Shown: positions 1-27,231 of the stretch, piece after piece
How the letters are laid out: each line of letters begins with the position of its first letter
Position numbering within the stretch: position 1 is the stretch's first letter
NCBI GenBank assembly: GCA_028279655.1
Contig: JANQNH010000001.1
Span: 17,484 to 81,483 of the forward strand
DNA length: 64,000 nucleotides
Direction of reading: 5' to 3'
Source: Candidatus Nanoarchaeia archaeon
GTDB taxonomy: Archaea; Nanobdellota; Nanobdellia; Woesearchaeales; JACPBV01
Translations under genes and position numbers: made by a program
Notes under the pieces: generated by a model
The model's input: the letters and a program-made list of their open reading frames with translations, nothing else
Databases searched by the model: none
What the model was told of the DNA's origin: nothing

Positions 1-1428
1 CCTGCAGATCCCATCGACTGTTCTGCTAATGATTTTGCATTGGTGGATACATGCGATAATGATCCTGATAATAATATATTTACATATGATTACGGGGCAG
101 AGTTCGTCTCTGTTTGTGTAGAGGCTACCCAATCATGTACAGTGGGAAGCCAGACTTTGACCCATGAATGTGATATAGTGAACTGTGGGGCTGAGTGTGA
201 AATAGATGATGATTGTGATGATCATGCTAATGGAGTTTGCCTGGGCAGTTGCGTATGTGAGTATACCTATTGCGGAGACGGGGAGATCAACCAGCAAAGC
301 GAGGAGTGTGATGATGGAAACAAGGTTGATGGTGACGGATGCTCTGCAGTATGTGAAACTGAGATAACTGAGGACCTTCAGGTTAACTATGTTAGGGGAA
401 GGATCACCATAGACGGTGTTGTTGCTCCAGCTGGTACTTCTTATAGTGTTGAGGTATTGTCTGGGGATAATACCGGAAGATCACATAGCGGCACAATAGA
501 TGATGATAATGTTCCTACACATCTTCATGGAGAAGGGTATCTTGATACTAACGAGCAGATAATATTCAATACAGGAGACTCTTTCAGGATAAGTTCATCT
601 GAATGTGTGGGTGTTGTAGATGGGGTCTTTGCTAATGGTGGTAATGGGGATTTCCTTGTTGGTGTTCTGGAGCTGGACTGCAGGATCCCTCCTGTTATAA
701 GCCAGATAGGCCATAATCCTCAAAATCCAACTGAGATAGAAGAGATCAATGTTTCAGCTAATGTTACTGATAATGATGGGGTAAATGAGGTATTCCTGAA
801 CTATACTATAAATGGAACCTATGAACATCTGGTTCCTATGACTTTAGATGATGTTTATTTAGTTGAACTTGGAGTATTTGCTCTGGGTACTACTATTGAC
901 TATAATATAAGGGCAAGCGATAACTATGGCAATGTTGTGGTCTCTGATGATCATTCAATCATTGTAGGACCTTCAGATCTGGATGGGGATGGGATTAGAG
1001 ATGCAGATGATAACTGTCCAGGCCTGGAAAATCCTCTGCAGGAGGATACTGATCTTGACGGCCTTGGGGATGTCTGCGATGATGACGATGATGACGATAC
1101 CGTACTTGATGGAGATGATAACTGTCCTCTGGCATCTAACGTTGGCCAGGAGGATAATGATGGAGATGGCCTTGGGGATGTCTGCGATGATGACGATGAC
1201 AATGACGGGAAGCTGGATATTGAAGATGATTATCCATTTGACCCTGACCAATGGCTTTTTGGGGATCTAAACGGAGATGATGAGGTCAATATCCTTGACC
1301 TGATAACAGCAAGAAATGCAATGGGCACCTACCCTGGGGATGAGTACTGGAACGAGGAAGCAGATGTCAATAATGATGGTACGGTCAATATTTTGGATCT
1401 TATTTTAATAAGAAATAATCTGGCCTGA
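1..1428 (+). CDS. Secreted cell-surface protein, 5'-partial (frame open to window edge). Cys-rich CxDG..EECDDGN..GDGC repeat, thrombospondin type-3-like Ca-binding repeats, C-terminal type-I dockerin.
   Basis: Frame 1 has no stop from position 1. Motif [29 protein letters not shown]. Repeated DxDxDGxxDxxDNCP...GDVCDDDDD (TSP3-like). C-terminal duplicated [13 protein letters not shown] / [13 protein letters not shown] dockerin segments. Confidence 0.75.
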
Positions 1429-1435
1429 AACTAAG

Positions 1436-1457
1436 GCCAAAACACGGGGGTTTTTTT
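1436..1457 (+). terminator. GGGGG followed by a T7 run between the two surface-protein genes. Possible terminator or SD region.
   Basis: cacgggggtttttttc immediately upstream of the ATG at 1459. Confidence 0.25.
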
Positions 1458-1458
1458 C

Positions 1459-4400
1459 ATGAAAAATAAAATTTTGGTTTATATATTAACTGTTTTTTTA
1501 GTGACAGCCATGGTTTCTTCTTTGGTTATTGCCACTACAGACCTGGATGTTGCTCCAACAAGCAGCCTTGTCTCCAATAATGATGAGTTTCTCATCAATG
1601 TGGATATAGATACTGACGATTCTGTAAGCGGGGGACAGTTTGTTGTTAATTTTGATCCTGCTGTCCTACAGGCTTTGTCTCAGGTAGATGGGGGTTTTCT
1701 CAGCCAGGATGGTGTTGCGGTTTTTGATGGCGGAAGCAGCATAGATAATACCAACGGAAAGGTTACCTTTAACATGATGGCAGGGACGCCTAACAAGGGA
1801 TTCAATGGAACAGGACATCTGGTGAACATAACCTTTGAAGCTGTAAAGAAGAACGATAATTCAGATATTACTATTGATAATATAATCCTTGGGGACTTTT
1901 CAGGATCTGCAGTATCTGTGTCTTCTATAGATAATGGAACTGTTGCTGTTGCTACAGTTGAAAAGATGCTTATCAATGAGTTTTTGGCAGATCCTACAAC
2001 AGGAAACGACTGGGTCGAGCTCTATAATAATGATACAAAATCTATCAACCTTAGCAACTGGCAGGTAAACGATACTGCAGGGAACAAGGAGATCATAGCT
2101 GATGTTGTGTTAGCTCCTGGGGAAAGAACATTGGTAGATATGGGGAGCAGCCTGAACAAGGGAGGAGATACAATATACCTGATAAATGATGAGGGACTTA
2201 TCATTGCGCAGGAGACCTATGCAACTGAGATAGGAGAAGACAAGTCCTATGGAAGGATGCATGATGGGATGGGAACATGGGTAACCTTTGATGAACCTAC
2301 ACCAGATGCAGCTAACAACAGGCTTTCTGTTGATTCTATAGCTGATAAAAATATTAATGAAGAGCACAGTAGATATTTTGATGTATCCCTTGATATATCT
2401 GATCCTGATGGAGACCCTTTGGTCTTTACAGTAGTTGATGAGGATGCAACTAAAGTGGATTGTAGTATACTGAATGATACTAACGTGACTTTGGTGCCTG
2501 TTGTTGACTGGTATGGAACAACCAACTGTACAATAAGGGTGAATGATACTTATGGGACTGTCGATAAGTTATTCAATATTGTTGTGGCAAATGTAAATGA
2601 TGCACCTACAATAGCAGGGGTGCCTGACATAAACCCTACAGAGGATGTTGATTATGAGCTTAATATCACACCTTACATAGGGGATATTGATAATGATGTT
2701 TCTGCTTTGGTGATCACTGAAAACAGTACACATGCAACTGTAAACGGCCAGATCATTACATTCAACTACCCAAATGGTATCTTGGGAGAGGAGGTTATGA
2801 TAATAGTGTCAGACGGAAGTCTGACTGATGAGCAGGCCATATCTGTTGCGGTTGGTGCGGTCAATGATGCACCTACAATAGCAGGAGTACCTGATATAAG
2901 CCCTACAGAGGATGTTGATTTTGAGCTTGACGTAAGCCCATATATAGGTGATGTTGATAATGATGTCTCTACTTTGATCATTACAGAGAACAGCTCTTAT
3001 GCAACTGTGGATGGACAGATCATTACATTCAACTACCCAAATGGTATCTTGGGAGAGGAGGTTATGATAACAGTGTCAGACGGAAGCTTAAGCAGCGACC
3101 AGACCATTACAGTCTCTGTTATCCCTGTTAATGACGCTCCTGTCATAGATCCATCGATAGCTTCGCTTAGCTTTTTGGAGGGGCAATACCTTGTATTGAA
3201 CCTAAGCGATTATGTCTCTGATGTGGATAATGCTGATGAGGACATCACTTGGAGTGCAGCTCCAACTGTAAATCTTGACGTAGATATAGATAATGAGCTG
3301 ATGAATATCTCTACAGTCTCCCCTACATTATACGGGAGGGAGGTATTTACCATGACTGCTGACGATGGTGGCGCTACTGATGATATCGAGGTTACAGTAG
3401 ATATCCAGAGCATACTGGATTTCAGCAACCTGGTTGTAACGATAGATGGAACAGAACATAATGCAGGCAACGGGGATACTGTTGGACCGGCTTCACCTGG
3501 ATCCACATTAAGCTTTAGCATAGACCTAACCAATAATTATCCTTTGGTTGAGGAGTGGGTCGAAGGGATAGTTTTAAGGGGAAAGATTGACAGTACTATT
3601 GATGATGAGACAACAATCAGCCCTTCTTTTACCTTGGATGGTACTAAGACTGCTACTAAGGAACTTGTATTCAATGACCTTCCTCTAACAGTAGAAGAGG
3701 GCAGCTATAATCTTACCATAGATGCATGGGGTATGGATCATATGGGGATGCCCAGAGGAGTCAGTTGGCTCGTCTATATAGATTATGTTACCTTAAGCAG
3801 GGAGATAAGGATTACTGAAGCAGCTTTCAGCGATGATGAGCTAGGCTGCTTTAGGGAAACAGAGCTAGACATAACATTGAAGAACACCGGAGAGACATTC
3901 CAGAACGTTAATCTGGAAGTAGAGAACCTTGATCTGGGAATTATGGAGACAAGGGATTTTCCAATGAATGCTAAGGAGACGATAAACAAGACCTTTAATG
4001 ATTCACTTAAATGGCCTTTAGGAGTTACTTTGGGAACATATCCTTTTGATATCAGAGTTAAATATGATGATGGACAGGGAGGATATCTGACACAGAGCAC
4101 CAGTGTGGACCTAACCTTTGTTGACTGCTTTGATATAGAGGACCAATCGATTGAGGAGGATTCAACAACTCCTTTGGTCCTGGACCTAGGCGATTATGTG
4201 GATGACCCTGTAAAGGCAGACTCAGATTTTACTTATGCTATAGAGGATGAGACAGATACTGCTTTGATTGACTGCGAGTTGGTTGCTATGACCTTAACAT
4301 GCGCAAATCCAACTCCAGACCAGAGCGGGTATTCGGATATACAGGTTAGTGTAAGCAGCGGAGCGCATGTAAACTATGATACGTTCAGGCTTACTGTTGA

Positions 4401-6600
4401 AGAGGACAATGACGGACCTGTTATAATCCCTACAATACCTAATGTGTTCTTTGATGAAGGACAGACTGACAGCACTATCGATCTAGACGATTATGTAGAG
4501 GACATGGATAATGCAGACGATGAACTTACATGGACATACTATGGAAACGTTAATATCACAGTTGATATTAACTCCTTGCACATTGTCACTTTTGGAACAC
4601 TCGATGAGGATTATTATGGTATTGAGACAATAACATTTAATGTAAGTGACGGAGAATATCATTATGCACAGGATGTTGTTGTTACTGTTAACCAGCTCCA
4701 GGATGACTGGCCTGAGATAACCAATCCAACCCTATTGACTGCAGGGACCGTTTATGGGGATGGAGAGGATGTTCTTTTAGAGATTGAGGTTCTTAATCCT
4801 GATTCAATGGTTTATACTGCAGAATGGTATGTTGACGGAACTAATGTTGGAAGCGGGCTTACCTATACTTTCAATGAGGCAGTGAGCGGCAATTATGATG
4901 TCGAGGTTATACTAGAGGATATCGGAGGCACGCAAGAATATGATAGTGCAGATTGGGAGATTGAGGTTAGTTCAGTTCCTGTTACCAGCTATAGTGGGAC
5001 GATAAATGATGTTGATGATACAAATGTAGGCGGATTTAGCGGACTTACTATATCCAACGGTAATGTGATGATTGATTTCGGCAATGCAGTCATCAACCTT
5101 GAAGATGTTGTTGACCTGGACAGTTTTGTAACCCTGGATGAGGGTGTTGTAGCTGTTGATACTGACGAACCAGGATATGATGTCTTTAAGATACCTGCAA
5201 CCATAACCATGTATGGGCTGGAACACGAATCGACACCACCAATCTACTATGATAATGGATTTACAGCAACAGGAACTACGGAATGTACTTCTACTACAGA
5301 CCCTTCATGCACCAATATAGTCTATAATGCAACTACAGGGACTCTTAGTTTTGATGTATCACATTTTACAGTGTTCTTCCTTCCGATTCCAAACAAGTCT
5401 CCTAGGATTACCTCTTCACCAAGCACTACGGCGGTGATCGATGAAGGTTATTCTTATGCTATAACAGCAACTGATGAGGATGGTGATTCTTTGGATTACT
5501 CTTTGCTGAGCGGACCTTCAGGGATGTCTATAAGCTCAAATATCTTGACTTGGACCCCTACTACCAACCTGACTAACGAGAGCGTCACTATCAGCGTTAC
5601 AGATAATGTCAATGCTCCTGTCACACAATCCTGGACAATAGATGTTGTTGAAGGCGCTAAGCTGATAATCAGCGATCTGGACATCAAGGTCGGCAGCGAT
5701 AAGGACAAAGACCTGAATGATGGAGACAGGATAGGGGAAGAGGCAAAGCCAGGAGATAAGGTAGAGTTTGATATTGAGCTTGAGAACCTTTACTCCAGAT
5801 CTTCAGATATAAAGATAGAGGACATCGAGGTAACTGTAACCATAAAGGATATTGATGACGGGGATGACATTGAGGATGATGTTACTCTGGATGACATAGA
5901 CGCAGGCAAGGATGATTCAGTCAAGCTGGACTTCTGGGTGCCTACCCTTGTTGACGAGGGCGATTATGATGTTATCATAGAGGTTGATGCAGAGGACGAA
6001 GACGGAAATGACCAGGACATAAGATGGGAACTAATCCTTGAGGTAAACAAGGACAGCCACGAGCTCCTTTTGGACAGGGTTGATCTAACCCCTTCTCTTG
6101 TACGATGCAACAGGAACCCTTCTGTTGATGTAAGGGTAGTTAATATCGGAAGCAAGGATGAGGATGATGTCAGCATAGAGATCCGAAGCGATCTGCTCGA
6201 CATAGAAATGAATGATCAAGGGATTGAGCTGGAGGAAGGGGATACTGACGATTCAGAGTATGACAGTATCTATAGGTTAAGAATAAGTGAAGATACAAAG
6301 ACAGGAGTCTATCCAATATCTGTCAAGGCCTATTATGATGGCAGGCTCGGGGACCAAAAGACTGTTGACCTGACTGTAGAGGACTGTGCAGATCTAGTTG
6401 TGCCTGTTAAACAGGAACCTGTCGAGGTCATTACAACAAGCGAACCTACCAAGATAAGGCCAGTCCAGACACCAGTAACAGAGATAACATTCAGAAACAC
6501 CTCGGAATACATAACCCTCTTGGTTGTACTGTTTATAATATTGCTAGGAGCGGTGATATTCCTGTTCATGGCAATGGCTATGATGCTTGGTGGAAAGTGA
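1459..6600 (+). CDS. Giant surface protein (1713 aa). N-terminal signal anchor, cohesin-like domain, lamin-tail domain, tandem Ig/cadherin-like repeats, acidic Ca-binding-like segments, C-terminal TM anchor.
   Basis: N-terminus ILVYILTVFLVTAMVSSLVIA. Cohesin-like segment VNFDPAVLQAL...GHLVNITFEAVKK. Lamin-tail-domain-like INEFLADPTTGNDWVELYNN...GDTIYLINDEG. Repeated NDAPTIAGVPDI modules. C-terminal ITLLVVLFIILLGAVIFLFMAMAMML. Confidence 0.8.
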   Translation: MKNKILVYILTVFLVTAMVSSLVIATTDLDVAPTSSLVSNNDEFLINVDIDTDDSVSGGQFVVNFDPAVLQALSQVDGGFLSQDGVAVFDGGSSIDNTNGKVTFNMMAGTPNKGFNGTGHLVNITFEAVKKNDNSDITIDNIILGDFSGSAVSVSSIDNGTVAVATVEKMLINEFLADPTTGNDWVELYNNDTKSINLSNWQVNDTAGNKEIIADVVLAPGERTLVDMGSSLNKGGDTIYLINDEGLIIAQETYATEIGEDKSYGRMHDGMGTWVTFDEPTPDAANNRLSVDSIADKNINEEHSRYFDVSLDISDPDGDPLVFTVVDEDATKVDCSILNDTNVTLVPVVDWYGTTNCTIRVNDTYGTVDKLFNIVVANVNDAPTIAGVPDINPTEDVDYELNITPYIGDIDNDVSALVITENSTHATVNGQIITFNYPNGILGEEVMIIVSDGSLTDEQAISVAVGAVNDAPTIAGVPDISPTEDVDFELDVSPYIGDVDNDVSTLIITENSSYATVDGQIITFNYPNGILGEEVMITVSDGSLSSDQTITVSVIPVNDAPVIDPSIASLSFLEGQYLVLNLSDYVSDVDNADEDITWSAAPTVNLDVDIDNELMNISTVSPTLYGREVFTMTADDGGATDDIEVTVDIQSILDFSNLVVTIDGTEHNAGNGDTVGPASPGSTLSFSIDLTNNYPLVEEWVEGIVLRGKIDSTIDDETTISPSFTLDGTKTATKELVFNDLPLTVEEGSYNLTIDAWGMDHMGMPRGVSWLVYIDYVTLSREIRITEAAFSDDELGCFRETELDITLKNTGETFQNVNLEVENLDLGIMETRDFPMNAKETINKTFNDSLKWPLGVTLGTYPFDIRVKYDDGQGGYLTQSTSVDLTFVDCFDIEDQSIEEDSTTPLVLDLGDYVDDPVKADSDFTYAIEDETDTALIDCELVAMTLTCANPTPDQSGYSDIQVSVSSGAHVNYDTFRLTVEEDNDGPVIIPTIPNVFFDEGQTDSTIDLDDYVEDMDNADDELTWTYYGNVNITVDINSLHIVTFGTLDEDYYGIETITFNVSDGEYHYAQDVVVTVNQLQDDWPEITNPTLLTAGTVYGDGEDVLLEIEVLNPDSMVYTAEWYVDGTNVGSGLTYTFNEAVSGNYDVEVILEDIGGTQEYDSADWEIEVSSVPVTSYSGTINDVDDTNVGGFSGLTISNGNVMIDFGNAVINLEDVVDLDSFVTLDEGVVAVDTDEPGYDVFKIPATITMYGLEHESTPPIYYDNGFTATGTTECTSTTDPSCTNIVYNATTGTLSFDVSHFTVFFLPIPNKSPRITSSPSTTAVIDEGYSYAITATDEDGDSLDYSLLSGPSGMSISSNILTWTPTTNLTNESVTISVTDNVNAPVTQSWTIDVVEGAKLIISDLDIKVGSDKDKDLNDGDRIGEEAKPGDKVEFDIELENLYSRSSDIKIEDIEVTVTIKDIDDGDDIEDDVTLDDIDAGKDDSVKLDFWVPTLVDEGDYDVIIEVDAEDEDGNDQDIRWELILEVNKDSHELLLDRVDLTPSLVRCNRNPSVDVRVVNIGSKDEDDVSIEIRSDLLDIEMNDQGIELEEGDTDDSEYDSIYRLRISEDTKTGVYPISVKAYYDGRLGDQKTVDLTVEDCADLVVPVKQEPVEVITTSEPTKIRPVQTPVTEITFRNTSEYITLLVVLFIILLGAVIFLFMAMAMMLGGK
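2596..3129 (+). repeat. Near-identical tandem duplication (2 x 267 bp, 89 aa each) inside the giant surface-protein gene. A third, diverged copy follows.
   Basis: Units 2596-2862 and 2863-3129 both read aatgatgcacctacaatagcagg...; protein NDAPTIAGVPDI...GILGEEVMI(I/T)VSDGSL. Confidence 0.85.
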
Positions 6601-6618
6601 TTTATAATTTAGAAAAAT

Positions 6619-7248
6619 CTATGATTTTTCTAACCCCTTAAAAGCACTGTTATCTCTGCTTTTAGGGATTTTTTTGTTTTTTGATTCGAATACTATTTTT
6701 AGCTCATGGTATATTCCATTAATCTTCTCTTGGTTTCTTCCCAACTTCTTGTTTGCCTCTGCAACTATTGTTTTTAGATAGCCTTCTTCTATCAGCATAT
6801 TGCCTTCTCTTGCAATTATAGTCTCCATAGCTTCTGTACCTATGATCTCCAGCATTATCCTCTTGTTAATGTTTATTATTCCTGCTCTTTTTATCCCTAT
6901 GTCTCTTACTGTTTTCAGCAGTTTTTCTGCAGCTTCTAAATGCCTGCAACAAACATGGATTATTATTGATTCCTGCCTGAGCCATATATCATTATTAGGG
7001 ATATGTTCTAGGCTTTGCCTTATAGCTTCAAACTCGGCTTTATTATGCTCTGCAAACTTAAACCTTGCGTCTTGTTTATTTTCTGTCTTCTTTTCTATCA
7101 ACAGGATCCTTCCAGAACAGGAGGAGGTCGTGTAATAGTCTTTGTGAGAATTGATAAGTTCGATCAAAGGCCTTATATCTTCATCAATGGACTGTTTATT
7201 GGACTTGTCAATCTTTGCGAGGCAGTTTTTCTTCTCGTTGTCGAACAT
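6619..7248 (-). CDS. taw3: tRNA wybutosine-derivative biosynthesis protein Taw3/TYW3-like methyltransferase
   Basis: TTSSCSGRI motif characteristic of the TYW3 family. About 200 aa. Confidence 0.5.
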   Translation of the reverse strand: MFDNEKKNCLAKIDKSNKQSIDEDIRPLIELINSHKDYYTTSSCSGRILLIEKKTENKQDARFKFAEHNKAEFEAIRQSLEHIPNNDIWLRQESIIIHVCCRHLEAAEKLLKTVRDIGIKRAGIININKRIMLEIIGTEAMETIIAREGNMLIEEGYLKTIVAEANKKLGRNQEKINGIYHELKIVFESKNKKIPKSRDNSAFKGLEKS

Positions 7249-7315
7249 GATGTAGGGAATTTTACAATGTATTTAATTTTTACTATAGAATTGTGTCCAT
7301 AATTGGGAAAAAAGG

Positions 7316-7945
7316 TTAAGCAGCAACGTACATGGTTTTTGGAAAATACTCCTTAAGCTTTATTATTGGATTATTATGCAATTGAGGTAATCTTTCTTTT
7401 ATGTATCTGTTTAGAACTTTTCCCATATCAAAGGCGTATAGTTGATTAGGCATGTCTTTTATGGATACAATAGTCTTTGAGCCTGCATCGTGAGTCAGGT
7501 CGCTCTTCTTTATTGTGTTCCACTCTGCATGATTTTTGATCACAGCTTCATATATGAATACAGATCCTTTCTTGAAAATAGTACCAGGTATTTTTTTATA
7601 AAAAACTGCATTTCTGGTGATTATCTCTGCAGCTTCTTTGTCAGTCATCTCTTCTTCAAGCTCCCTTGCAAGGCCTTCAAGAGGGCTTTCTCCTTTTTTG
7701 ATCATGCCTCCCACCAGCTTTATCTTTCCTGCATGCTCTTTTGCGAAGTAATCTTCTGGCGTAATCTCCATATAGAATTCTGTCTCTTCTCCATTATCAT
7801 TCCTTATTATGACAATAGCTGCGTCTAACGTATCATCCGGATCCTTAGCGTCTGCTATCTCTTCTAATGAGAGTTCTGATTCTCCACTATGACATGCTTC
7901 TGCTTCAGCAGAATCACACGTATCTTCGCTCGCTTCTTCACCCAT
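7316..7945 (-). CDS. Nudix hydrolase with acidic N-terminal extension
   Basis: Nudix box GGMIKKGESPLEGLARELEEEMT (Gx5Ex7REUxEExGU). Confidence 0.7.
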   Translation of the reverse strand: MGEEASEDTCDSAEAEACHSGESELSLEEIADAKDPDDTLDAAIVIIRNDNGEETEFYMEITPEDYFAKEHAGKIKLVGGMIKKGESPLEGLARELEEEMTDKEAAEIITRNAVFYKKIPGTIFKKGSVFIYEAVIKNHAEWNTIKKSDLTHDAGSKTIVSIKDMPNQLYAFDMGKVLNRYIKERLPQLHNNPIIKLKEYFPKTMYVAA

Positions 7946-8001
7946 AATATACTAGAAAAATGTTATATTTTATATAAATTTTACTATTATTGAGTCATAA
8001 C

Positions 8002-8805
8002 TTATTTCCAACCAATAAACCTTCTCATCCTGTCTACAAACTCTTCTGCATCTTTGTAGTACCTGTCAAATTCCTGTCCTTTTATCTCCTTGATCTCATT
8101 GTGGGTTATCATCTTGCTTAGCCTGTAGAAATTTCTCATCATGGTGACATATTTTTTTTCCAGGAGCCTGTGCTTAACAAGCTTTTCCTGAAGAAGGTCA
8201 GATATGTGGTCTGGGGATGGGGGAACAGCACCATGCTTCATCAGAGCTGCATGCGCAGAATCAATCACAGCCCAATATAGGTCTATAGTCCCCTGCAATA
8301 TGTGCCATTTTGCATTGTGCAGGGTATTTGGGGCCCTTATATAGTAGTTCCAGATGCTCTCTTCTGTAGGCCTGATCCTTCCTCTTCTCAGCAATGCCTG
8401 TAACGGTTCAAAGAATCCGGTATCTATCAGTGCAACTCCATCCCTAAGGATGTTTATTGCAATCGGGTCTCCGTTTCTTATATACTCCCAGAAAGAGCTG
8501 AACCTTAAGGAGGTGATGTGCAGTCTCGTAGAGTTCTTTGCAATCATCCTCTGGACTATCACCCTATATGCCTCTACAAGTTCTTGGGAGAAATTTATTG
8601 CCAGGTCGTCCACAACTATCATGATGTCAAGATCTGATCCTGGTTTTCTCTTTTTCTTAGCTGAGGAACCAAATAGAACTACAGCTTTCAGGAAGGTCCC
8701 CAATTCCTTATGCATATCCTTGGTAAACTTATAGGCTATGTCAAGATCTTGTTTCCTGTAGAGCTCAAGATTTGGATTTACTTTTTTATCTATCTCAACT
8801 TTCAT
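8002..8805 (-). CDS. Pol-beta-superfamily nucleotidyltransferase fused to a HEPN-like C-terminal domain
   Basis: LFGSSAKKKRKPGSDLDIMIVVDD (GS...D.D nucleotidyltransferase motif). C-terminal RLSKMITH fits HEPN Rx4-6H. Confidence 0.55.
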   Translation of the reverse strand: MKVEIDKKVNPNLELYRKQDLDIAYKFTKDMHKELGTFLKAVVLFGSSAKKKRKPGSDLDIMIVVDDLAINFSQELVEAYRVIVQRMIAKNSTRLHITSLRFSSFWEYIRNGDPIAINILRDGVALIDTGFFEPLQALLRRGRIRPTEESIWNYYIRAPNTLHNAKWHILQGTIDLYWAVIDSAHAALMKHGAVPPSPDHISDLLQEKLVKHRLLEKKYVTMMRNFYRLSKMITHNEIKEIKGQEFDRYYKDAEEFVDRMRRFIGWK

Positions 8806-8904
8806 AATATCCCCTTGAGGTAATATCTATACGATAGTTATTTAAACCTTATTGACTATTTTACAATGGTATATTTTATATAGTGGACGAGGTTAGATGT
8901 TCTT

Positions 8905-9741
8905 ATGCTGCATAGTCTAAGAAAGATATTTGGCTCAAACATAAAGGCCCTTGAGATCCTGTATATCCTGGAAGGCGTAAAGCCAGCTGGGAGGATAATG
9001 GTGAAGGAAGACGATAAGGAAGGGATATTTTCATTCCTTGAGGATAAGGGGCTTAGTTTTTCTGTGTCTGACTTTAAGGTTATAAAGCAGGATAAGGAAA
9101 AGCCATATTCAGATAAGGCCATAAAGGTTCCTATAGATTCTGATAAGAAGGGGTATTTTTTTGTCTATATATCCAAGGATAAAGAGAAAACAACAGAGGC
9201 GAAGAGGCTTGAGGGAGAGGGGAAACATGAGGAATTAGGGGTATTGCTCGGCTATCCCAGGTGTTGCTCTGTCTTCTTTTCAGATCATTTTGAGGAAGAA
9301 AGCAGGAAGGACAATGATTATACATTGAGGGCATTAGGAAAATCTGAGGGCTTTGAGTTTCCTTTTTTCTCTAATATTGCAGCAAGGCATTTTGATCTGT
9401 CTTTGTTGAGCCATTTCCCCTGCAGTTTCAACTGTGAAAAGTCTGTTGAGATTGCAGAGAACCATCTAGAGGTAGTTGAGAGGTATGATAAAGAGATTGC
9501 AGAGATAATAAGGGGCATGTTGAAGGGGGCTGTGGTTTATACAGAGAACGAAGGGGTTTTTTTGCTGAGACAATGTAAGCTTGAGCATAACAGGCTATAC
9601 TATAAGGGGGTGATGGGTACTGGGAGCAGCCAATTGGCTGAGATGCTGAAGAATGCCGAGTATATAGATATAATGAATAAGAACCGGATAAGATTAGATG
9701 GATTAGAGATGAAGAATGTTGGTTTTATGCTGTTTTCTTAG
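8905..9741 (+). CDS. Conserved hypothetical protein with LGYPRCC motif
   Basis: Long ORF with plausible codon usage. GYPRCCSVFF and CSFNCEK cysteine motifs. Confidence 0.45.
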   Translation: MLHSLRKIFGSNIKALEILYILEGVKPAGRIMVKEDDKEGIFSFLEDKGLSFSVSDFKVIKQDKEKPYSDKAIKVPIDSDKKGYFFVYISKDKEKTTEAKRLEGEGKHEELGVLLGYPRCCSVFFSDHFEEESRKDNDYTLRALGKSEGFEFPFFSNIAARHFDLSLLSHFPCSFNCEKSVEIAENHLEVVERYDKEIAEIIRGMLKGAVVYTENEGVFLLRQCKLEHNRLYYKGVMGTGSSQLAEMLKNAEYIDIMNKNRIRLDGLEMKNVGFMLFS

Positions 9742-9785
9742 ATAATAATCTTAAATGTGATTTATCTTTATAATTAACCTGCAAA

Positions 9786-10319
9786 TCATCTGGAGTATAA
9801 TGATATCAATGTATTTTCGACATTGAAACTAGTCTCTTTCTTGAGATGCATTGGGTGGAAATGATTGCTATGCACTATCAGCTTGCCGTTCAACTCTTTT
9901 AGAAGCTTCTCTTCAGTACCTCTTTCCATCGGCTTGTCTGGATTGATGAAAATTATGTCATAGTCCTTAATTGAATGGTGGGTAAAGTCATTATGATGGA
10001 AATCTGCATTTTTTATGTTTAGTTTTCTCTTGTATTCAATGGCCTTCTCATGAAGCTCATCATCTATCTCGATACCTTCTGCCTGTTTGCAGAACAAGGA
10101 GGCAATCAAGGTTATCTTTCCATCCCCACTTCCAAGGTCCATAAAATTCTTGTATTTTTGCAGGTTGAGCTTCTTGAATGCAGCGTATACCTCATCACTT
10201 ATTGCTGCATTCCAGAAACCCAGTTCTGTCGATCTTAATGGAAGCTTTCCCTGTTTTAAGAGAGATCTATAATAAGTGTCATACTCCTGCTTTATCTCTT
10301 TGAATTTCCTCGGTTTCAT
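9786..10319 (-). CDS. Small class-I SAM-dependent methyltransferase
   Basis: Motif I MDLGSGDGKITLIA. Acidic motif II IEIDDEL. Confidence 0.6.
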   Translation of the reverse strand: MKPRKFKEIKQEYDTYYRSLLKQGKLPLRSTELGFWNAAISDEVYAAFKKLNLQKYKNFMDLGSGDGKITLIASLFCKQAEGIEIDDELHEKAIEYKRKLNIKNADFHHNDFTHHSIKDYDIIFINPDKPMERGTEEKLLKELNGKLIVHSNHFHPMHLKKETSFNVENTLISLYSR

Positions 10320-10792
10320 TGCATCTGGTATTTCTTAATCTTGTGTATAAGTGATTTTGTTGCGACGACAAGATTTGCTATCTCATCGCTGGTTCCATGG
10401 TATTTGATCTTCTCTACCCTTTCTCCTAGCTGGTCAATCCACCCCATCTGGTCTTCGCTTGGGGACTCTCCTCCATAAGCGATGCCTTTTGCTGCTTCAT
10501 AGTCCTGTGCTAGCTCGTAAAGCGGGCCCTGGTCCTCTTCTGTAGCTTCTTTTTTTACAGTGGCCTCCAGATTCTGCTCTTCGGCAAAGAGGCTGCTGAT
10601 ATCTATCGGTTTTGTCTCAGGGACCTTTACTGATTCTGCAATCCCATCTCTTTCTATCTGGGACTCTGTCTCATGGATCAGCTTTTCTGCTTCTTCTATC
10701 TCCTTTTTATTCTCTTCTTCAAGGGATTTTAGTCTCTTGATCCTCTCGGCAGCGGACAGCTTTCCAAGCTCTTCTTTGTTTATCTTTGCCAT
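10316..10792 (-). CDS. Acidic coiled-coil protein, unknown function. Its ATG lies in an ATGA overlap with the stop of the 9786-10319 gene, so it is upstream of and translationally coupled to the methyltransferase.
   Basis: E/K-rich coiled coil. 4-nt overlap with the 9786..10319 gene. Confidence 0.45.
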   Translation of the reverse strand: MAKINKEELGKLSAAERIKRLKSLEEENKKEIEEAEKLIHETESQIERDGIAESVKVPETKPIDISSLFAEEQNLEATVKKEATEEDQGPLYELAQDYEAAKGIAYGGESPSEDQMGWIDQLGERVEKIKYHGTSDEIANLVVATKSLIHKIKKYQMQ

Positions 10793-10855
10793 ATTTATCT
10801 GGTAATGCTATCGGGTTAATAAATCTATCTTGGATTTCATCAGGTAGTGTGGTAA

Positions 10856-13054
10856 TTATTCCATTGGTACCTGGGACCATAGGGTCCAGTCATTGCTTGG
10901 AGCATAGGATCCAAATACAAAATAAGGGGGTTGGTTCTGACCGAAGTAGGAGTATTGTACCTGGCCCCATGTCTGAGGCACTCTGGCTCCACCTCCTCCA
11001 ACGCCATATATCGGGGAGCCCATGTAACGCCAGGTTTTCATCAATCCATGGAAATCCGACAGGTCAGTGGAGGCGTCTGCTCCTGGCTCAACTGTTAAAG
11101 CTTTATCATATCCATACTTGGACAATATGTTCATAACCTCTTTTAGGGGGGCATTCCCCTGTCCTGGGGCAAGATGGTCATCCTGAAAGCCGAAGTTGTC
11201 TGACATGTGCACATTTCCAATGTAACCTCCCTTTGCAAGCTTATCGAATTCCTGAACATACCATTTTTTAAAGTCCTTATCTGCTTCTTCTATGGTCTGG
11301 CCTGGCTTAACCTGCCAGAATTTTCTCCAAACGTTTGCATGTCCTGTGTCAAAGGTAGCCTTTATGTGCTTCTCTGCCAATTTCTCAGCCTGTTCCTTGG
11401 ACATCCCTTTTTGATAGTATAGGTTATCTGTAGGGCCCCAGTCCTTTATCTTTGTTCCTTCTTGCCAAGCTCCATGTGTTATCTTTTTTTCAGTGAGGAA
11501 TCTGACCATCTGCTTTCTTGCCTGGTCTATAACAAACTTCAGTTCCTGAGGATGGCCACCAAAGCGTTCTGGGAATATGTTTTCTATTGCAAGGAAGACA
11601 GGATTGTTGTCATCCTTGGATCTTTGCCAGGTCCTGATCCCTGCTTCGGCATATAGCCTTGCGATGTGCCTTTTGAATCTTTTCACAGGGGTAACGATAT
11701 GTTTTTTTGTTTCTAAGGTGTCTTCTGCCTGCTGCTCCTGGGAGGCAGATGATTGCCGTGAATAATCGATTCTTGCCCTCATCTCTTCTATTTTACCATC
11801 TATTATTTCAAGGGGGTTTTTTGTATCCGGAGTAAGGATCTCCTGGGCGTGCCTCCATAAAGATGTATCCTGCTTCATTATCTTCCATTTCTCTTCTGGT
11901 GGAACGTCTTTGTCGAGTTTTTCATAGAACTTTCTTACTTCCTTAAGTTTTTCAAGTACTTCGATCTCTTCCTTTGCAGTTTGACCAAACTGACCTGCCC
12001 ACCCTCTAGAATGTCCTTCGTTGGTCTCTAAAGTAGCATGTATGAAAGCTTCGTCTGGATGGACCTCTCCTTCGTAATAGAACTCAGGATCGTCATACCA
12101 CTCCTTTCCTGTAAGGGCTTTCCAATGTTGTTTGTTCCATTCTGTATGCTCTACTGCTTCCTCTCTGAAATAGTCAAAATCATGATACTCAACCTTAAAT
12201 CTTTGTGCTTCAGGATCATATTGAGGGACTCTTCCATATTTTGCGTCATAGGGATTAATAATCTTATTCCCCTCATAATCTATATAATCTCCTTTTTTTA
12301 TCTTTGTTGGCTTTCCTTTCAGATGTTCAAATTCCGGGTCACTCTTCCCCTGGTATTCACCATCATAATCATGGTCTGCTCTCCTCCATTTAGGTACTGA
12401 TACGAAGCGATCTTTCTGGACTGTCTCCATCTTCTGAGAGGTCCTGTCGTCTAGAAGAACGAAGTTTGCATCTGCCTCCTGTGAGTGCCTTTCCTTGAAC
12501 ATCAACCTTCCATTCTCATCATAAGCAAGGTTCTTTTTCATCAATGGATCATCTAAGGTCATGTCTGTCATAGGCCTTTCCCACTCTCCTGTGTGTACAA
12601 CGACAGATCCTCCGCCGGCAGTGTCTGCTGCAAAGTCAACTGCCCTTCTTATCTCCTGTAGGTTCTGGCTTGCATTGTTGACAGAGAAGTTCCCTCTCTG
12701 GTCAGAGCCCATCATGCCCATTGTGAATGCCGAGTGTGTCGTGAGCTTGATCTCGTTGATGTTGGCCATCTCTCTTATGGCCTGCCTTTGGTCTTCACCA
12801 TAGACTCCCGGGGTTTGTGCGTTTCTCTGGGAGCCCCCTGCCTGTGGGAACTGTATCTCTATAGAGCCAACCCCCATCCTTATCTTAGAGTATAATCCTG
12901 CTACATTCTGCGCTGCTATCCCCATAGGGACACTCAGTCCTATGTCTTTTATGCTAAAACCAGGAGAATCTGTTTTTTCCTGGCCATACATCTCAGGATC
13001 CATGGAATTAGCATAATCTACCATTGGATGGTGGGTGTAGTATCTGAATTCCAT
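10856..13054 (-). CDS. Xylose-isomerase-like (AP endonuclease 2 family) TIM-barrel protein with a highly charged insertion of about 330 aa and a Gly-rich C-terminal tail
   Basis: ATFDTGHANVW and NVHMSDNFGFQDDHLAPGQGNAPLKEVMNILSKYGYDKALTVEPG resemble the HxHDN...PGxG..D metal-site blocks of sugar-phosphate isomerase/epimerase TIM barrels. The long D/E/K-rich middle is not part of the canonical fold. Confidence 0.5.
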   Translation of the reverse strand: MEFRYYTHHPMVDYANSMDPEMYGQEKTDSPGFSIKDIGLSVPMGIAAQNVAGLYSKIRMGVGSIEIQFPQAGGSQRNAQTPGVYGEDQRQAIREMANINEIKLTTHSAFTMGMMGSDQRGNFSVNNASQNLQEIRRAVDFAADTAGGGSVVVHTGEWERPMTDMTLDDPLMKKNLAYDENGRLMFKERHSQEADANFVLLDDRTSQKMETVQKDRFVSVPKWRRADHDYDGEYQGKSDPEFEHLKGKPTKIKKGDYIDYEGNKIINPYDAKYGRVPQYDPEAQRFKVEYHDFDYFREEAVEHTEWNKQHWKALTGKEWYDDPEFYYEGEVHPDEAFIHATLETNEGHSRGWAGQFGQTAKEEIEVLEKLKEVRKFYEKLDKDVPPEEKWKIMKQDTSLWRHAQEILTPDTKNPLEIIDGKIEEMRARIDYSRQSSASQEQQAEDTLETKKHIVTPVKRFKRHIARLYAEAGIRTWQRSKDDNNPVFLAIENIFPERFGGHPQELKFVIDQARKQMVRFLTEKKITHGAWQEGTKIKDWGPTDNLYYQKGMSKEQAEKLAEKHIKATFDTGHANVWRKFWQVKPGQTIEEADKDFKKWYVQEFDKLAKGGYIGNVHMSDNFGFQDDHLAPGQGNAPLKEVMNILSKYGYDKALTVEPGADASTDLSDFHGLMKTWRYMGSPIYGVGGGGARVPQTWGQVQYSYFGQNQPPYFVFGSYAPSNDWTLWSQVPME

Positions 13055-23980: not shown

Positions 23981-24073
23981 ACTAAGAAGATACCTTATTC
24001 ATATATAAATTTTATGTTGTAGTCTTTTAAAAGGAGGACAAATATTATTATAATAGCCTGTATTTTCTGTGAA

Positions 24074-25186
24074 GTGATTATTATGGCTGAGAAACCTGAT
24101 AACCTTGCATTTAGATGTATGGAAAATCCTTTTGTAATAGGTAGAGACAACGCAATATTCTCACCTCATGATGGATTGGGTTTTATTGTGAACAATGGAG
24201 GTTTTGTGGGTAGGGATAGGTTTATTAGCAGAAGCTCTGCTATTGAAGAGCTTAAAGAAGGCACTGGTCCAGTAATAATTAATATGGGGGATTCCTCAAC
24301 ATCTGGCTGGCATAGCGATATGCTATCCAGAGATAGAGATAACAAGCCAACCGATCCATATTTTCATTACAAAACTTATTCTGATTTAATGCGAGAAGTA
24401 TTTGGGAGAGTAATAAATGCAGGAGTTTCAAAATACACTACTTTACAAGGGAAGAAATATCTAGCGCTTATTTTAAGAGATTTTGCAAAGCATAATATCT
24501 ATCCAGATTATGTTACTTTATACTTTGGAAACAACGACTCAGTATTTAGTCGTATTGAGGATAAAACCGCAATTGATGGCATGTTACCGACCAGAAACAA
24601 TACCTACAAAAGGGTATTACTTGCTGATTATAAGCGTAATCTGGAAGAGATGATTAGACTTATCAGATGCTATGGTGCGATACCAATAATCATTATTCCG
24701 CCTAGAAGATATGACTGGCCACCAGCTCTACGCTCACTAAAATATAAGGAAGAACGTAAAGTAGGTATAGAAGAACTTGAACCAGTTGAATTAAGGACAG
24801 AATTAGAAAAAGCAAGCCAATTATTTTGGGAAGATAGATTAGAAGAAGCTTATGAAAAAGACGTTTTCTTACCTAGGATCAAGAAGATATATGTTGAAAT
24901 GCTAATAAAAACTGCTAAAAGACAGAATGTGGACATTATTGATGTCCAAAAAGATGTGCCTTTCCATAAAAGTGGGGAATTTTTTTGTGATTATTGCCAT
25001 CCATTAGAACCTACAAATGAATTAATTTTAAGGGAATTTCTGAGAATAAAAGAAGCATACAAAATCCCATTAAGGTATAGAATACTTGAAGGTACAATAA
25101 ATTTTTTGGGACATTTCATCAGACCAGGAAGAAGCGGTAGAAGTGACAAACATCAACCCCCCACCGATATTTACCCCTTACATTAA
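24074..25186 (+). CDS. SGNH/GDSL-family hydrolase
   Basis: Block I INMGDSSTSG, block III LYFGNNDS, block V DYCHP. Confidence 0.6.
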   Translation: MIIMAEKPDNLAFRCMENPFVIGRDNAIFSPHDGLGFIVNNGGFVGRDRFISRSSAIEELKEGTGPVIINMGDSSTSGWHSDMLSRDRDNKPTDPYFHYKTYSDLMREVFGRVINAGVSKYTTLQGKKYLALILRDFAKHNIYPDYVTLYFGNNDSVFSRIEDKTAIDGMLPTRNNTYKRVLLADYKRNLEEMIRLIRCYGAIPIIIIPPRRYDWPPALRSLKYKEERKVGIEELEPVELRTELEKASQLFWEDRLEEAYEKDVFLPRIKKIYVEMLIKTAKRQNVDIIDVQKDVPFHKSGEFFCDYCHPLEPTNELILREFLRIKEAYKIPLRYRILEGTINFLGHFIRPGRSGRSDKHQPPTDIYPLH

Positions 25187-25239
25187 ATGGCTTAGCATAA
25201 ATCCCCCTCACTTTTGATTGTGGAGCATCAATTAGAATA

Positions 25240-25539
25240 ATGGGTTGGCAAAAAATAGAAACATTTATATATCAGATGGTATCTATTGGTATCATGAATA
25301 CGCAAATTAATCTAAGAATGCCACAAAAATTGCTTAGTTCAGTTAAATCTTACAGTGATGAGCATGGATATGGTTCAGTACAAGATTTTATTAAGGAAAC
25401 AGTTAGGGAGAAACTATTTGATGAGCCTGAGATAAGTAAAGAAGAATTGGCACTTGTAAAAAAACTTGCAGAAGTTACTGAAAAGAAGAAACTATATGGA
25501 ACTGAGAAACAATTATTTGAGAAACTTAGGAGAAGATAG
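25240..25539 (+). CDS. Ribbon-helix-helix (CopG-like) antitoxin. True start may be the internal Met at 25294.
   Basis: MNTQINLRMPQKLLSSVKSY...FIKETVREKL, with an RHH beta-strand followed by helices. Confidence 0.55.
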   Translation: MGWQKIETFIYQMVSIGIMNTQINLRMPQKLLSSVKSYSDEHGYGSVQDFIKETVREKLFDEPEISKEELALVKKLAEVTEKKKLYGTEKQLFEKLRRR

Positions 25540-25541
25540 TA

Positions 25542-25838: not shown

Positions 25839-25969
25839 TTTTTTTTCAATCCCATATAGCGCTAATTCCTGATTGAATATCACCTCAATATGCTAACTTT
25901 TTTTATCATCTGAAATACAATTCCTGATTTAGAGAAAACTTTAAATACTACTGTTATCAGGTTACAGGT

Positions 25970-26248: not shown

Positions 26249-26451
26249 GTTTGTTCTTAACTATTCTAATCAATCCGTACATATTGCTTAAGGAACAGTA
26301 TACTCTAGACTAGAAATGTTTATATAAATATGTAAGTTATTCCATATTAAAGGCATAGAATATTGTTGTAAAAAAATAAATACAATATCCGACCATTAAT
26401 TAGTGATAAAATAACTTTAAATATATAATTCCTCAGCCGGAGTGTATTGAG

Positions 26452-26682: not shown

Positions 26683-26684
26683 AA

Positions 26685-27134: not shown

Positions 27135-27144
27135 AATCTGTATG

Positions 27145-27179: not shown

Positions 27180-27231
27180 CTTGTGCTGTTAAGTTAGCGT
27201 CACCTAGTCATCCTACTCTGAGCTTTAAGGT

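Follow-up and report, generated by a model that had tools for sequence, protein, structure and literature searches.

A predicted two-piece cohesin-dockerin surface complex encoded by adjacent genes of a Woesearchaeota archaeon

Results

Two adjacent genes encode one dockerin and one cohesin

We identified two adjacent, co-directional genes at the start of the window, the whole 64-kb stretch of DNA analysed here (all features described below lie on the + strand). Gene 1 (1..1428) is represented by its 3' part: the open reading frame, in frame 1, runs from base 1 to a TGA at 1426-1428, and the 5' end lies beyond the window. Gene 2 (1459..6600) encodes a predicted type I membrane protein of 1713 aa that would serve as stalk and anchor. 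A preliminary description of this DNA spoke of adjacent giant proteins; the adjacency and the size of gene 2 stand, but only 475 aa of gene 1 are visible and its orthologues are between 296 and 1391 aa long. The 30-nt intergenic spacer (1429..1458) is evident from the sequence, in which the gene 1 TGA is followed by an in-frame TAA, GGGGG, a run of seven T and the gene 2 ATG. The two genes share a reading frame here, and the stop codons between them block read-through. Spacers in orthologous loci are 13-92 nt long and are not multiples of 3, which argues that genes 1 and 2 are two separate genes.

Six-frame searches of the 64 kb with family HMMs recovered exactly one cohesin and one dockerin, those of the adjacent genes. 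The SRP54 of the source organism is 88-94% identical to proteins from Woesearchaeota/Nanoarchaeota MAGs, and the window also encodes an archaeal ThrRS editing domain and TYW3. These sequence affinities identify the source as a Woesearchaeota (DPANN) archaeon, consistent with the DPANN origin first suggested. As also described at the outset, no glycoside hydrolase is present among the window ORFs scanned. The visible cluster encodes no nuclease, hydrolase or transporter.

Gene 1 encodes a predicted secreted protein with a C-terminal dockerin

The gene 1 product is predicted to be secreted, highly acidic and free of transmembrane (TM) helices. Its visible part is Cys-rich and very acidic (D+E 23.6%, K+R 2.3%). 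The orthologues have an N-terminal signal peptide and an N-terminal lamin-tail domain (LTD), and no TM helix was found in them. Their modules are ordered as signal peptide, LTD, fn3 (in some), Cys-rich repeats, TSP3 repeats and dockerin. The best relative, a gene of locus L087, is 54% identical across aa 88-417.

A Cys-rich acidic repeat of the DUF4215/myxo_disulf_rpt kind (253..363) was recognized by TIGR02232 (aa 89-121, 47.1 bits, cut-off 20.8). Pfam DUF4215 matches weakly (17 bits), and the database homologues found with this stretch bear the name 'cysteine-rich repeat proteins'. Further along is a tentative Ig-like domain (685..960), which has weak, sub-threshold similarity to Pfam DUF7743 (E 0.015) and is kept in orthologue tails. 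It lies ahead of thrombospondin type-3 (TSP3) calcium-binding repeats (973..1245), detected as three Pfam TSP_3 matches (35.5 bits, threshold 25) and as an NCBIfam MtsC-like TSP3 region (aa 325-415). Domain scans detected no catalytic domain in gene 1 or in the 8 orthologous dockerin proteins. The payloads consist solely of modules for binding or structure: LTD, fn3, DUF4215, TSP3/MopE and, in L086, a weak CBM_56-like match.

The dockerin occupies the extreme C-terminus of gene 1 (1261..1425). Pfam Dockerin_1 matches aa 421-474 with 38.8 bits (threshold 22.9). The module has two duplicated F-hand segments with calcium loops at 1264-1299 and 1363-1398, both of which contain the calcium-coordinating pattern D-x-N-x-D...D. 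An AF2 model (pLDDT 89.9) has two helices, and the best 30 matches in a Foldseek search of the PDB are all dockerins (best matches TM 0.70-0.76, rmsd 0.7-1.4 A). A dockerin profile likewise matches PDB dockerins (E 3e-19). The TSP3 repeats, the C-terminal dockerin and its duplicated segments thus agree with the preliminary description. Its 'type I' label has no source beyond the name of the Pfam family, and by fold the module is closest to type II dockerins, so we leave the dockerin type unassigned.

Within each protein the two dockerin halves co-vary, a trait also of dockerins with a dual binding mode. At helix and recognition positions, halves of one protein have an identity of 0.63 and halves from different proteins 0.34; for whole segments the values are 0.64 and 0.48 (permutation test p ~5e-5). 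Positions 10/11, for example, compare between halves as IL/IL, TL/TL, II/II and VG/VG. Because recognition positions are near-identical in both halves, the gene 1 sequence suggests a dual binding mode, in which the dockerin may bind in either of two orientations.

Gene 2 encodes a predicted membrane-anchored stalk with a single cohesin

The gene 2 signal peptide (1459..1533; MKNKILVYILTVFLVTAMVSSLVIA) was called from inspection and a hydropathy scan; its hydrophobic character is kept in orthologues. A single cohesin (1531..1959) forms the mature N-terminus, the predicted membrane-distal tip. Pfam Cohesin matches the N-terminal 170 aa alone with 33.2 bits (threshold 24.1, profile positions 12-137 of 139) and is unreported when the whole 1713-aa protein is scanned. 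A local family HMM gives 168 bits. The AF2 model is of high confidence (pLDDT 96.8, pTM 0.90), and its best 50 Foldseek matches in the PDB are all cohesins, led by the Archaeoglobus fulgidus cohesin 2xdh (E 1.5e-12, TM 0.78/0.81). The cohesin family profile also matches PDB cohesins at the sequence level. Neither outcome that the preliminary description named as refuting was seen: the segment did not fail to model as a cohesin-type beta-sandwich, and the gene 1 dockerin did not lack the Ca-coordinating pattern.

The cohesin is followed by an LTD (1960..2328), conserved in the orthologue alignment and matched by Pfam LTD at aa 168-254 (54.7 bits, threshold 34.3). The LTD is the only region recovered by word-indexed homology search. 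An array of Ig-like modules with approximate boundaries (2350..4908) contains four Big_9 stretches (45.9 bits) and weak Cadherin_4, Cadherin_5 and PKD_3 matches. The membrane-proximal region (5560..6345) is putatively archaeal S-layer-protein-like: NCBIfam NF033506 ('putative S-layer protein') matches aa 1368-1629 with 54 bits, under its cut-off of 110, and weak Pfam MG2 and DUF4625 matches point to beta-sandwich folds.

Hydropathy and sequence place a C-terminal TM helix at 6511..6588 (aa 1685-1710), which, like the cohesin and the LTD, had been noted from the letters alone. The motif TSEY comes before the helix, and a short tail comes after it: GGK here, RR/K in the orthologues. These retain the motif, the helix and a basic tail. 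No NCBIfam sorting-signal model matched the C-terminus, and a Pfam scan found no CBM along the stalk. Full-length orthologues of gene 2 have 1623-2076 aa and a common architecture, and a shorter relative of 1126 aa was also recovered.

The modules are retained as a pair and lost together

A dockerin-ending, signal-peptide-bearing, TM-less protein is encoded upstream of the cohesin-LTD stalk in 9/9 distinct loci (8 beyond that of the window). The dockerin gene directly adjoins the stalk gene in 8 of the 9; in L085, a Fic gene and a small ORF are inserted between them. Each paired locus encodes a single cohesin and a single dockerin. The pairing is retained at 35-55% identity and in differing downstream contexts (e.g., UvrB in L003). 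In the syntenic locus L005, the stalk gene adjoins TYW3 and encodes a signal peptide followed directly by the LTD; this stalk lacks a cohesin, and upstream of its gene there is no dockerin gene. Cohesin and dockerin were lost together in L005. The idea of a surface complex, originally raised from the window alone, gains comparative support from these patterns.

Divergence is much faster in the surface genes than in the genes around them. Between the window and its closest relative, L085, these surrounding genes are 78-94% identical, and gene 2 is 55% identical overall and 51% in the cohesin-LTD region. The L085 dockerin protein has an architecture unlike that of gene 1; the dockerin-bearing head is swapped among close relatives. 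Pairwise divergence of the dockerins does not track that of the cohesins (r = 0.08, 9 pairs).

Discussion

A proposed variable head on a conserved stalk

We propose, with a probability of roughly 70%, that genes 1 and 2 encode a two-piece, non-enzymatic Woesearchaeota (DPANN) surface complex assembled by a calcium-dependent cohesin-dockerin interaction. The pair is probably an adhesin. Gene 2 product would be exported by its signal peptide and retained in the membrane by its C-terminal helix. Its ectodomain of ~1650 aa would then extend outward as the S-layer-like region, the Ig-like array, the LTD and the single cohesin at the tip. For the gene 1 product, the C-terminal dockerin would be the sole means of cell retention, plugging into the cohesin at the stalk tip. 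Docking of this kind would display a variable, binding-type head (gene 1) atop a conserved stalk (gene 2), most likely for adhesion or ligand capture. We infer from architecture and conservation that the gene 1 dockerin binds the gene 2 cohesin, and likewise the calcium dependence, the geometry of the complex and its adhesive role. The pair offers a fresh example of an already known, non-cellulosomal docking system.

A more specific possibility, which we put forward tentatively, is that the complex is the DPANN cell's device for host recognition and attachment, with the exchangeable dockerin-borne head setting host specificity. The organism belongs to a lineage that is widely held to be host-dependent. 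Fast surface-gene divergence and head swapping are expected of a host-interaction interface; fast evolution would also fit phage or predator evasion, or diversity of environmental ligands. Neither a host nor a host ligand is identifiable from the sequence, the syntenic relative L005 manages without both modules, and we know of no cultured Woesearchaeota system.

Proteins described elsewhere are in keeping with this reading. The uncultured ANME archaea and their sulfate-reducing partners, which form obligate cell-cell partnerships, carry non-cellulosomal cohesin and dockerin genes that are sometimes adjacent, and adhesion or partner recognition is proposed for their products (PMC10553843). The lineage and architectures differ from those here, the adhesive role is likewise a proposal, and the passages considered describe no conserved stalk-plus-head operon like this one. 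In an epibiotic Saccharibacterium, one dockerin protein is essential (PMC10633639), and a role in host recognition is predicted for DPANN surface proteins that carry Ig, PKD or LamG domains (PMC10266531).

It is rather unlikely that the complex instead belongs to the cell's own envelope or captures nutrients, as an S-layer-associated fibre that binds extracellular DNA or glycans and not another cell. DPANN cells generally rely on scavenged building blocks, which would suit nutrient capture, and the membrane-proximal part of gene 2 resembles an S-layer protein, but this match falls under the family cut-off. LTDs occur in both proteins (in gene 1 as judged from orthologues) and recur in bacterial extracellular nucleases and DNA-foraging systems (PMC8289736), but the ligand specificity of prokaryotic LTDs is not established. 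Carbohydrate binding is hinted at by CBM96 in a neighbouring protein of L085 and by the CBM_56-like match in the L086 head; these matches come from relatives and none from this window. The lack of a nuclease, hydrolase or transporter in the visible cluster also argues against this reading.

Adjacency without partnership, in which the gene 1 dockerin or the gene 2 cohesin pairs with other proteins, appears more doubtful still. In classical cellulosomes the dockerin genes lie dispersed, and a single cohesin type serves many dockerins. A cohesin superfamily search returned thousands of proteins, many of them multi-cohesin or carrying their own dockerin, so promiscuous partners are conceivable; other cohesins or dockerins beyond the 64-kb window, to which our view of the genome is limited, may compete. 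Comparison of the 9 pairs also gave no covariation signal between the paired modules. Against this stand the 9/9 retention of the pair across divergent loci, the one-to-one ratio at each locus and in the whole 64 kb, and the joint loss in L005.

The 'cellulosome-like surface complex' of the preliminary description keeps its docking principle but not its cellulosome. A true machine arranging polysaccharide-degrading enzymes on the cell surface is close to refuted: the cohesin is single, no catalytic domain accompanies the dockerin in gene 1 or its 8 orthologues, the stalk lacks a CBM, and the window ORFs scanned include no glycoside hydrolase. The two modules do define cellulosomes, and a CPR bacterium's cohesin and dockerin genes were so interpreted (PMC9123182). 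In L001 and L087, genes for alpha-amylase and GH57 occur close to the pair, but the amylase, GH57 and phosphorylase genes of relatives lie beyond TYW3 and their Pfam content resembles glycogen metabolism. Cellulosome scaffoldin systems (CipA, ScaA/ScaB and others) share the same two modules, and their duplicated-segment dockerins have the symmetry that suggests a dual binding mode. They differ in having scaffoldins with several cohesins, CBMs and dozens of CAZymes that bear dockerins; no such feature is found here.

Comparison with known docking systems

For the two-piece surface complex that we favour, the closest functional analogues are single-cohesin anchoring proteins and archaeal non-cellulosomal modules. 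The A. fulgidus cohesin, also matched by our family profile, is likewise archaeal and without cellulosome context. The fold is common to both, and calcium-dependent dockerin binding presumably is too, but cohesin sequence identity is only 19%. The A. fulgidus modules belong to much smaller proteins, one bearing both cohesin and dockerin. Here, the cohesin sits at the end of a TM-anchored LTD/Ig stalk of 1713 aa, and the dockerin is encoded by its own conserved gene upstream.

The nearest analogue for how the gene pair would work is the Clostridium thermocellum pair OlpA and OlpC (3ul4, 4dh2), in which one cell-anchored cohesin takes one dockerin protein directly at the surface. Their cohesins are among the best fold matches of the gene 2 cohesin (TM 0.79-0.81). 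OlpA and OlpC are wall-anchored through SLH repeats, not by a TM helix. Both are short bacterial proteins that lack an Ig stalk and an LTD; they dock cellulosomal enzymes and are not known to be encoded beside a dedicated partner. One-to-one, non-cellulosomal pairing of two secreted proteins is likewise known from Clostridium perfringens NagJ-NagH (2ozn), both modules of which were matched by our fold and profile searches. Unlike the proteins described here, NagJ and NagH are bacterial glycoside hydrolase toxins without a membrane stalk or Ig array.

Long, acidic, Sec-exported and membrane-anchored Ig-repeat proteins are also encoded in other reduced genomes, including nanohaloarchaeal SPEARE-type proteins and an Omnitrophota giant ORF with nine dockerins (PMC10266531, PMC10066038). 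Host interaction has been proposed for such giant surface proteins of DPANN and ultra-small symbionts (PMC10266531, PMC10066038). Each of those giants is one polypeptide, reaching 9409 aa at most, and some contain ATPase domains, whereas the function here would be divided between two proteins that dock through cohesin and dockerin.

Adjacent genes encode a dockerin and a cohesin

We identified a dockerin at the C-terminus of gene 1, which encodes a predicted secreted ('head') protein at the left edge of the window. Gene 1 runs in frame 1 of the plus strand from position 1 to a TGA at 1426–1428; 475 amino acids are visible and its 5′ end lies beyond the window. Residues 421–474 match Dockerin_1 (Pfam accession PF00404, 38.8 bits against a threshold of 22.9) over profile positions 2–56 of 57. 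Three Pfam TSP_3 (thrombospondin type-3, TSP3) repeats lie directly ahead of the dockerin, and residues 89–121 form a cysteine-rich acidic repeat (NCBIfam). No X-module was detected with this dockerin.

The gene 1 dockerin comprises two duplicated ~22-residue segments, each with a 12-residue F-hand calcium loop and a helix. Asp or Asn occupies loop positions 1, 3 and 5, Asp occupies position 12, and the sequence LI(T/L)(A/I)RN follows each loop. The Asp positions of the calcium loops are invariant in the dockerin alignment. Across nine dockerins, the Asp/Asn positions are largely kept, with Thr or Ser taking the place of Asn at position 3 in segment 1 of the closest relative (locus L085) and segment 2 of a second relative (locus L001). 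An AF2 model of the dockerin (pLDDT 89.9) has helices at residues 22–30 and 55–62, and a Foldseek search of the PDB with this model returned dockerins at all of ranks 1–30 (for example 2y3n_B, TM 0.76/0.83, rmsd 0.7 Å). The dockerin profile also matches PDB dockerin sequences, down to an E-value of 3e-19.

We identified a cohesin at the N-terminus of gene 2, a plus-strand ORF at 1459–6600 that encodes a 1713-amino acid membrane ('stalk') protein. The Pfam scan of the whole 1713-residue protein did not report the cohesin, but the N-terminal 140–170 residues scanned alone match it (Pfam accession PF00963, 33.2–33.9 bits against 24.1) over profile positions 12–137 of 139. A profile of the relatives of this cohesin matches 26 PDB cohesins. 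The AF2 model of residues 25–169, built on a 40-sequence alignment of relatives, is all-beta (pLDDT 96.8, pTM 0.90), and its best 50 PDB fold matches in Foldseek are all cohesins (TM 0.65–0.80). The top match, and the closest relative by structure, is 2xdh, the non-cellulosomal Archaeoglobus fulgidus cohesin (E-value 1.5e-12, TM 0.78/0.81).

Gene 2 also encodes a lamin-tail domain (LTD; Pfam accession PF00932, 54.7 bits against 34.3), a domain that is found N-terminally in orthologous dockerin proteins as well (50–59 bits). Pfam further detects four Big_9 Ig-like stretches and weaker cadherin-, PKD- and MG2-like matches, and no carbohydrate-binding module (CBM). The membrane-proximal part resembles a putative archaeal S-layer protein in NCBIfam, with a score under the family cut-off. 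Topology signals are present at both ends of the protein: the N-terminus is signal-peptide-like, and a conserved TSEY motif at the C-terminus is followed by a hydrophobic transmembrane helix (residues 1685–1710) and a basic tail. An archaeosortase-type sorting signal (for example PGF-CTERM) was sought in the last 74 residues, which have no NCBIfam match at E ≤ 1; we thus treat the C-terminus as a plain transmembrane anchor.

These results agree with a preliminary description of the sequence, which had placed a dockerin after TSP3 repeats at the end of gene 1, and a cohesin, an LTD and a C-terminal transmembrane anchor in gene 2. That description had named two points on which it could fail, the fold of the cohesin and the calcium-coordinating Asp/Asn pattern of the dockerin; the fold is of the cohesin type and the pattern is present. 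Its 'type-I' label for the dockerin is not established, as the Pfam name is generic and the leading fold matches are type II dockerins (5k39_B, 5m0y_B and 2y3n_B), with type I dockerins ranked after them.

Genes 1 and 2 lie in a common reading frame, which raises the question of a single gene split by an error or joined by read-through. The 30-nt plus-strand spacer (1426–1461 region) presents the stops TGA and TAA, then GGGGG, a T7 run and ATG, and the two in-frame stops prevent read-through. Gene 2 has its own signal peptide, and spacers at orthologous loci (13–92 nt) are out of frame, so the frame common to genes 1 and 2 is a coincidence and the single-gene explanation is rejected. Scanning the locus for promoters and terminators gave counts at shuffle level with bacterial-type models that are inapplicable to archaea, and neither the tRNA scan nor the Rfam scan found anything in the window.

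Organism and protein composition

The assignment to a DPANN archaeon, put forward only as putative in the preliminary description, is supported by several genes. The SRP54 of the window is 88–94% identical to proteins from 'Candidatus Woesearchaeota archaeon' and 'Nanoarchaeota archaeon' MAGs, and the window also encodes an archaea-specific ThrRS editing domain, TYW3 and further archaeal markers.

The gene 1 and gene 2 proteins are extremely acidic (D+E 19–24%, K+R 2–4%). Halophily as the source of this acidity is ruled out by the cytoplasmic proteins of the window (such as SRP54, ThrRS, TYW3 and a Ski2-like helicase), which are Lys/Arg-rich. The acidity is thus specific to the exported surface proteins and fits their many calcium-binding motifs.

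Cohesin and dockerin occur as a pair at related loci

Family HMMs run over all six frames of the 64-kb window detect one cohesin and one dockerin only, and the two are neighbours. An exhaustive HMMER search, with the cohesin as query, retrieved 2418 representative proteins at E ≤ 0.001. Many of these have two to five cohesins and some also have a dockerin. A subset shares the gene 2 layout of a single N-terminal cohesin, an LTD, an Ig array and the TSEY motif with transmembrane helix and basic tail. Among the 150 matches listed, about 12 are orthologue-like. The best-scoring relatives outside the orthologue group, P0012 and P0091, contain more than one cohesin (three stretches in P0012) and a C-terminal dockerin of their own, of the GDVNGDG...MYLAKHLLG type. 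Judged by domain content, putatively self-assembling cohesin and dockerin proteins thus exist in the superfamily neighbourhood of the gene 2 cohesin.

Genomic contexts were compared for the window and eight relatives of gene 2 (nine loci). In all eight relatives, the stalk gene is preceded on the same strand by a gene for a signal-peptide protein that lacks a transmembrane helix and ends in a dockerin. The dockerin gene is directly adjacent to the stalk gene in eight of the nine loci, with a single cohesin and a single dockerin at every locus. The exception to adjacency is L085, where a Fic-domain gene and a small reverse-strand ORF (6236–7790) are inserted between the dockerin and cohesin genes. 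At another related locus, L003, the pairing is kept despite a changed downstream context (UvrB).

A further locus, L005, lacks both modules. It is syntenic with the window (TYW3 adjoins the stalk gene), and in its stalk protein (4370–10804) the signal peptide leads directly into the LTD, with the cohesin absent. The upstream gene encodes a CARDB/MG2 protein and no dockerin gene is present upstream. L005 is a natural variant without either module, and cohesin and dockerin are jointly present or jointly absent. The L005 record is labelled 'uncultured Methanosarcinales', although TYW3 adjoins as in the window, and a Cas6 gene lies near the stalk gene, at 3038–3838. L005 was the only informative result of a genome scan with an LTD motif; most of the other matches were unrelated LTD proteins spread over many phyla (the locus L006 is not orthologous). 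A word-indexed homology search with the cohesin and LTD region retrieved LTD proteins only, a scan of a genome collection with TYW3 found nothing, and an exact look-up in public assemblies gave no record for the gene 2 protein or TYW3.

Within each dockerin, the two halves are more alike than halves taken from different dockerins. Among the nine dockerins, overall identity between halves is 0.64 within a protein and 0.48 between proteins (permutation p ~5e-5), and at helix and recognition positions the values are 0.63 and 0.34. Changes at positions 10/11 are matched across the halves (IL/IL, TL/TL, II/II and VG/VG). At the sequence level, dockerins with a dual binding mode show this kind of symmetry (compare 2vn5/2vn6), and the pattern implies that both faces are under selection for a single partner surface. 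Across nine pairs, a mirror-tree analysis of how dockerins and cohesins diverge gave r = 0.08, equal to the LTD control, and was uninformative.

The observation of a gene pair is correct and non-random. The predicted physical pairing of the gene 1 dockerin with the gene 2 cohesin is well supported by these sequence comparisons.

Head proteins vary and are exchanged between relatives

Head proteins are 296 to 1391 amino acids long and combine LTD, fn3, DUF4215 cysteine-rich repeats and TSP3/MopE repeats in different ways. The head protein of one relative has a weak CBM-like (CBM_56-like) match. We found no catalytic domain in the visible part of gene 1, nor in those orthologous dockerin proteins that were scanned.

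The surface genes diverge fast. Between L085 and the window, five neighbouring genes have 78–94% protein identity, whereas gene 2 has 55% and its cohesin–LTD region 51%. The dockerin-bearing protein of L085 differs in architecture from gene 1, and the best match of gene 1 comes from L087, which is more distant than L085; heads are exchanged between relatives. L087 also encodes a head paralogue (2052–5021; LTD, DUF4215 and TSP3) in which a transmembrane helix replaces the dockerin, directly upstream of the dockerin-bearing copy. This arrangement suggests that such heads can be displayed either by docking or by direct anchoring in the membrane, each being able to replace the other. In L085, a CBM96 and a C-terminal transmembrane helix are encoded by the gene that precedes the dockerin gene.

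In several relatives, the pair ends a co-directional cluster of four genes that partly overlap (overlapping stop and start codons). These clusters encode, in order, a ~220-amino acid protein, a 674-amino acid fn3/Pur_ac_phosph_N protein, the dockerin-bearing head and the cohesin stalk (L001, L002, L086, L087 and L089). The ~220-amino acid protein has a signal peptide and a C-terminal transmembrane helix, and both extra genes (3996–6661 in L001) are conserved and encode exported proteins. They may be further parts of the same surface apparatus. The window starts downstream of the region that holds these two genes.

Comparison with known cohesin–dockerin systems

Gene 2 may be analogous to OlpA and OlpC of C. 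thermocellum, single-cohesin anchoring proteins that are both among the best cohesin fold matches. The preliminary description had called the pair 'cellulosome-like'. This holds for docking through a cohesin and a dockerin, but none of the three defining features of cellulosomes that we tested was found. Cellulosomes have a multi-cohesin scaffoldin, whereas gene 2 and each of its orthologues have one cohesin. Cellulosomes carry dockerin-borne CAZymes, and none was detected in the visible part of gene 1 or the orthologous heads scanned; the window ORFs scanned contain no glycoside hydrolases, as the preliminary description had noted for the vicinity. Finally, cellulosomal scaffoldins have a CBM, whereas gene 2 has none, and CBM96 and a weak CBM_56-like match are confined to relatives, in a neighbouring protein and a head protein. 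The pair is a non-cellulosomal cohesin–dockerin system, with genuine modules, a Woesearchaeota archaeon as the organism and no enzymes found in the cluster.

An adhesion role for non-cellulosomal cohesin and dockerin proteins in uncultured, partner-dependent microbes is an existing idea. It has been proposed for ANME–SRB consortia (PMC10553843) and also exists for Omnitrophota (PMC10066038). A dockerin protein is essential in an epibiotic Saccharibacterium (PMC10633639), and giant Ig-repeat surface proteins are a recognized DPANN theme (PMC10266531). In the literature searched, whose coverage was incomplete, we found no description of cohesins or dockerins in Woesearchaeota or of a stalk-plus-head operon.

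Proposed assembly and function

We propose that the pair forms a cohesin–dockerin-docked, non-enzymatic surface complex, a narrower reading than 'cellulosome-like'. Gene 2 would be a type-I membrane protein with its single cohesin at the mature N-terminus, at the membrane-distal tip of a long Ig-repeat stalk. The gene 1 protein would be secreted and retained on the cell only via its C-terminal dockerin. Plugging of the calcium-loaded dockerin into the tip cohesin would then display a variable, binding-type head. We infer that these modules bind one another in this geometry and in a calcium-dependent manner, and that the complex may be adhesive.

Host attachment, raised as a possibility in the preliminary description, would be a reasonable specialization of this surface-complex reading. 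A bolder and, in our estimate, unlikely version is a modular Woesearchaeota host-attachment fibre with a conserved stalk, exchangeable heads and docking specificity that co-diversifies even among closely related strains, in which head and docking would together set host range. Its co-diversification element draws on the IL/IL pair in the window as against VG/VG in L085 and on the 51% identity of the cohesin as against 78–94% for the neighbouring genes.

Little is known about how DPANN archaea recognize other cells and stay attached to them; this locus offers a concrete, conserved and biochemically simple candidate. To our knowledge, Woesearchaeota have no cultured model. The two modules are small (about 70 and about 145 amino acids) and can be tested for calcium-dependent binding, and the variable head could serve as a ligand probe on environmental samples. 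The stalk–head pair may also serve as an orthogonal protein-docking pair. The locus extends the catalogue of non-cellulosomal cohesin–dockerin systems, the new element being a dedicated, operon-encoded, one-to-one stalk and head. If the pairing proves to be one more structural role for a common module, what is gained is that two large surface proteins labelled 'hypothetical' are now correctly annotated.

Other features of the window

We identified a low-GC stretch at 24000–34000 (31–33% compared with about 40% elsewhere). It encodes a GDSL-lipase-like protein (24074–25186), an IS240-type DDE transposase (28761–29666, minus strand) and a 1114-amino acid GLUG/TSP3 surface protein (30170–33514). 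This stretch may be a horizontally acquired island with another surface protein.

A six-gene cluster at 47684–55630 starts with a GNAT and ATP-grasp fusion (47684–49318, minus strand). The remaining genes encode two tandem Ddl-like ATP-grasp ligases, a 444-amino acid protein, an Orn/Arg/DAP-decarboxylase-like PLP enzyme and a lysine-2,3-aminomutase-like radical SAM protein. Together these genes resemble a pathway for small peptides or beta-amino acids, something not expected of a DPANN archaeon with a reduced genome.

The window also encodes two AP_endonuc_2 (xylose-isomerase-like TIM barrel) proteins, at 10856–13054 and 33962–35089. One of these is unusually long (732 amino acids) and is conserved in L002 and L085.
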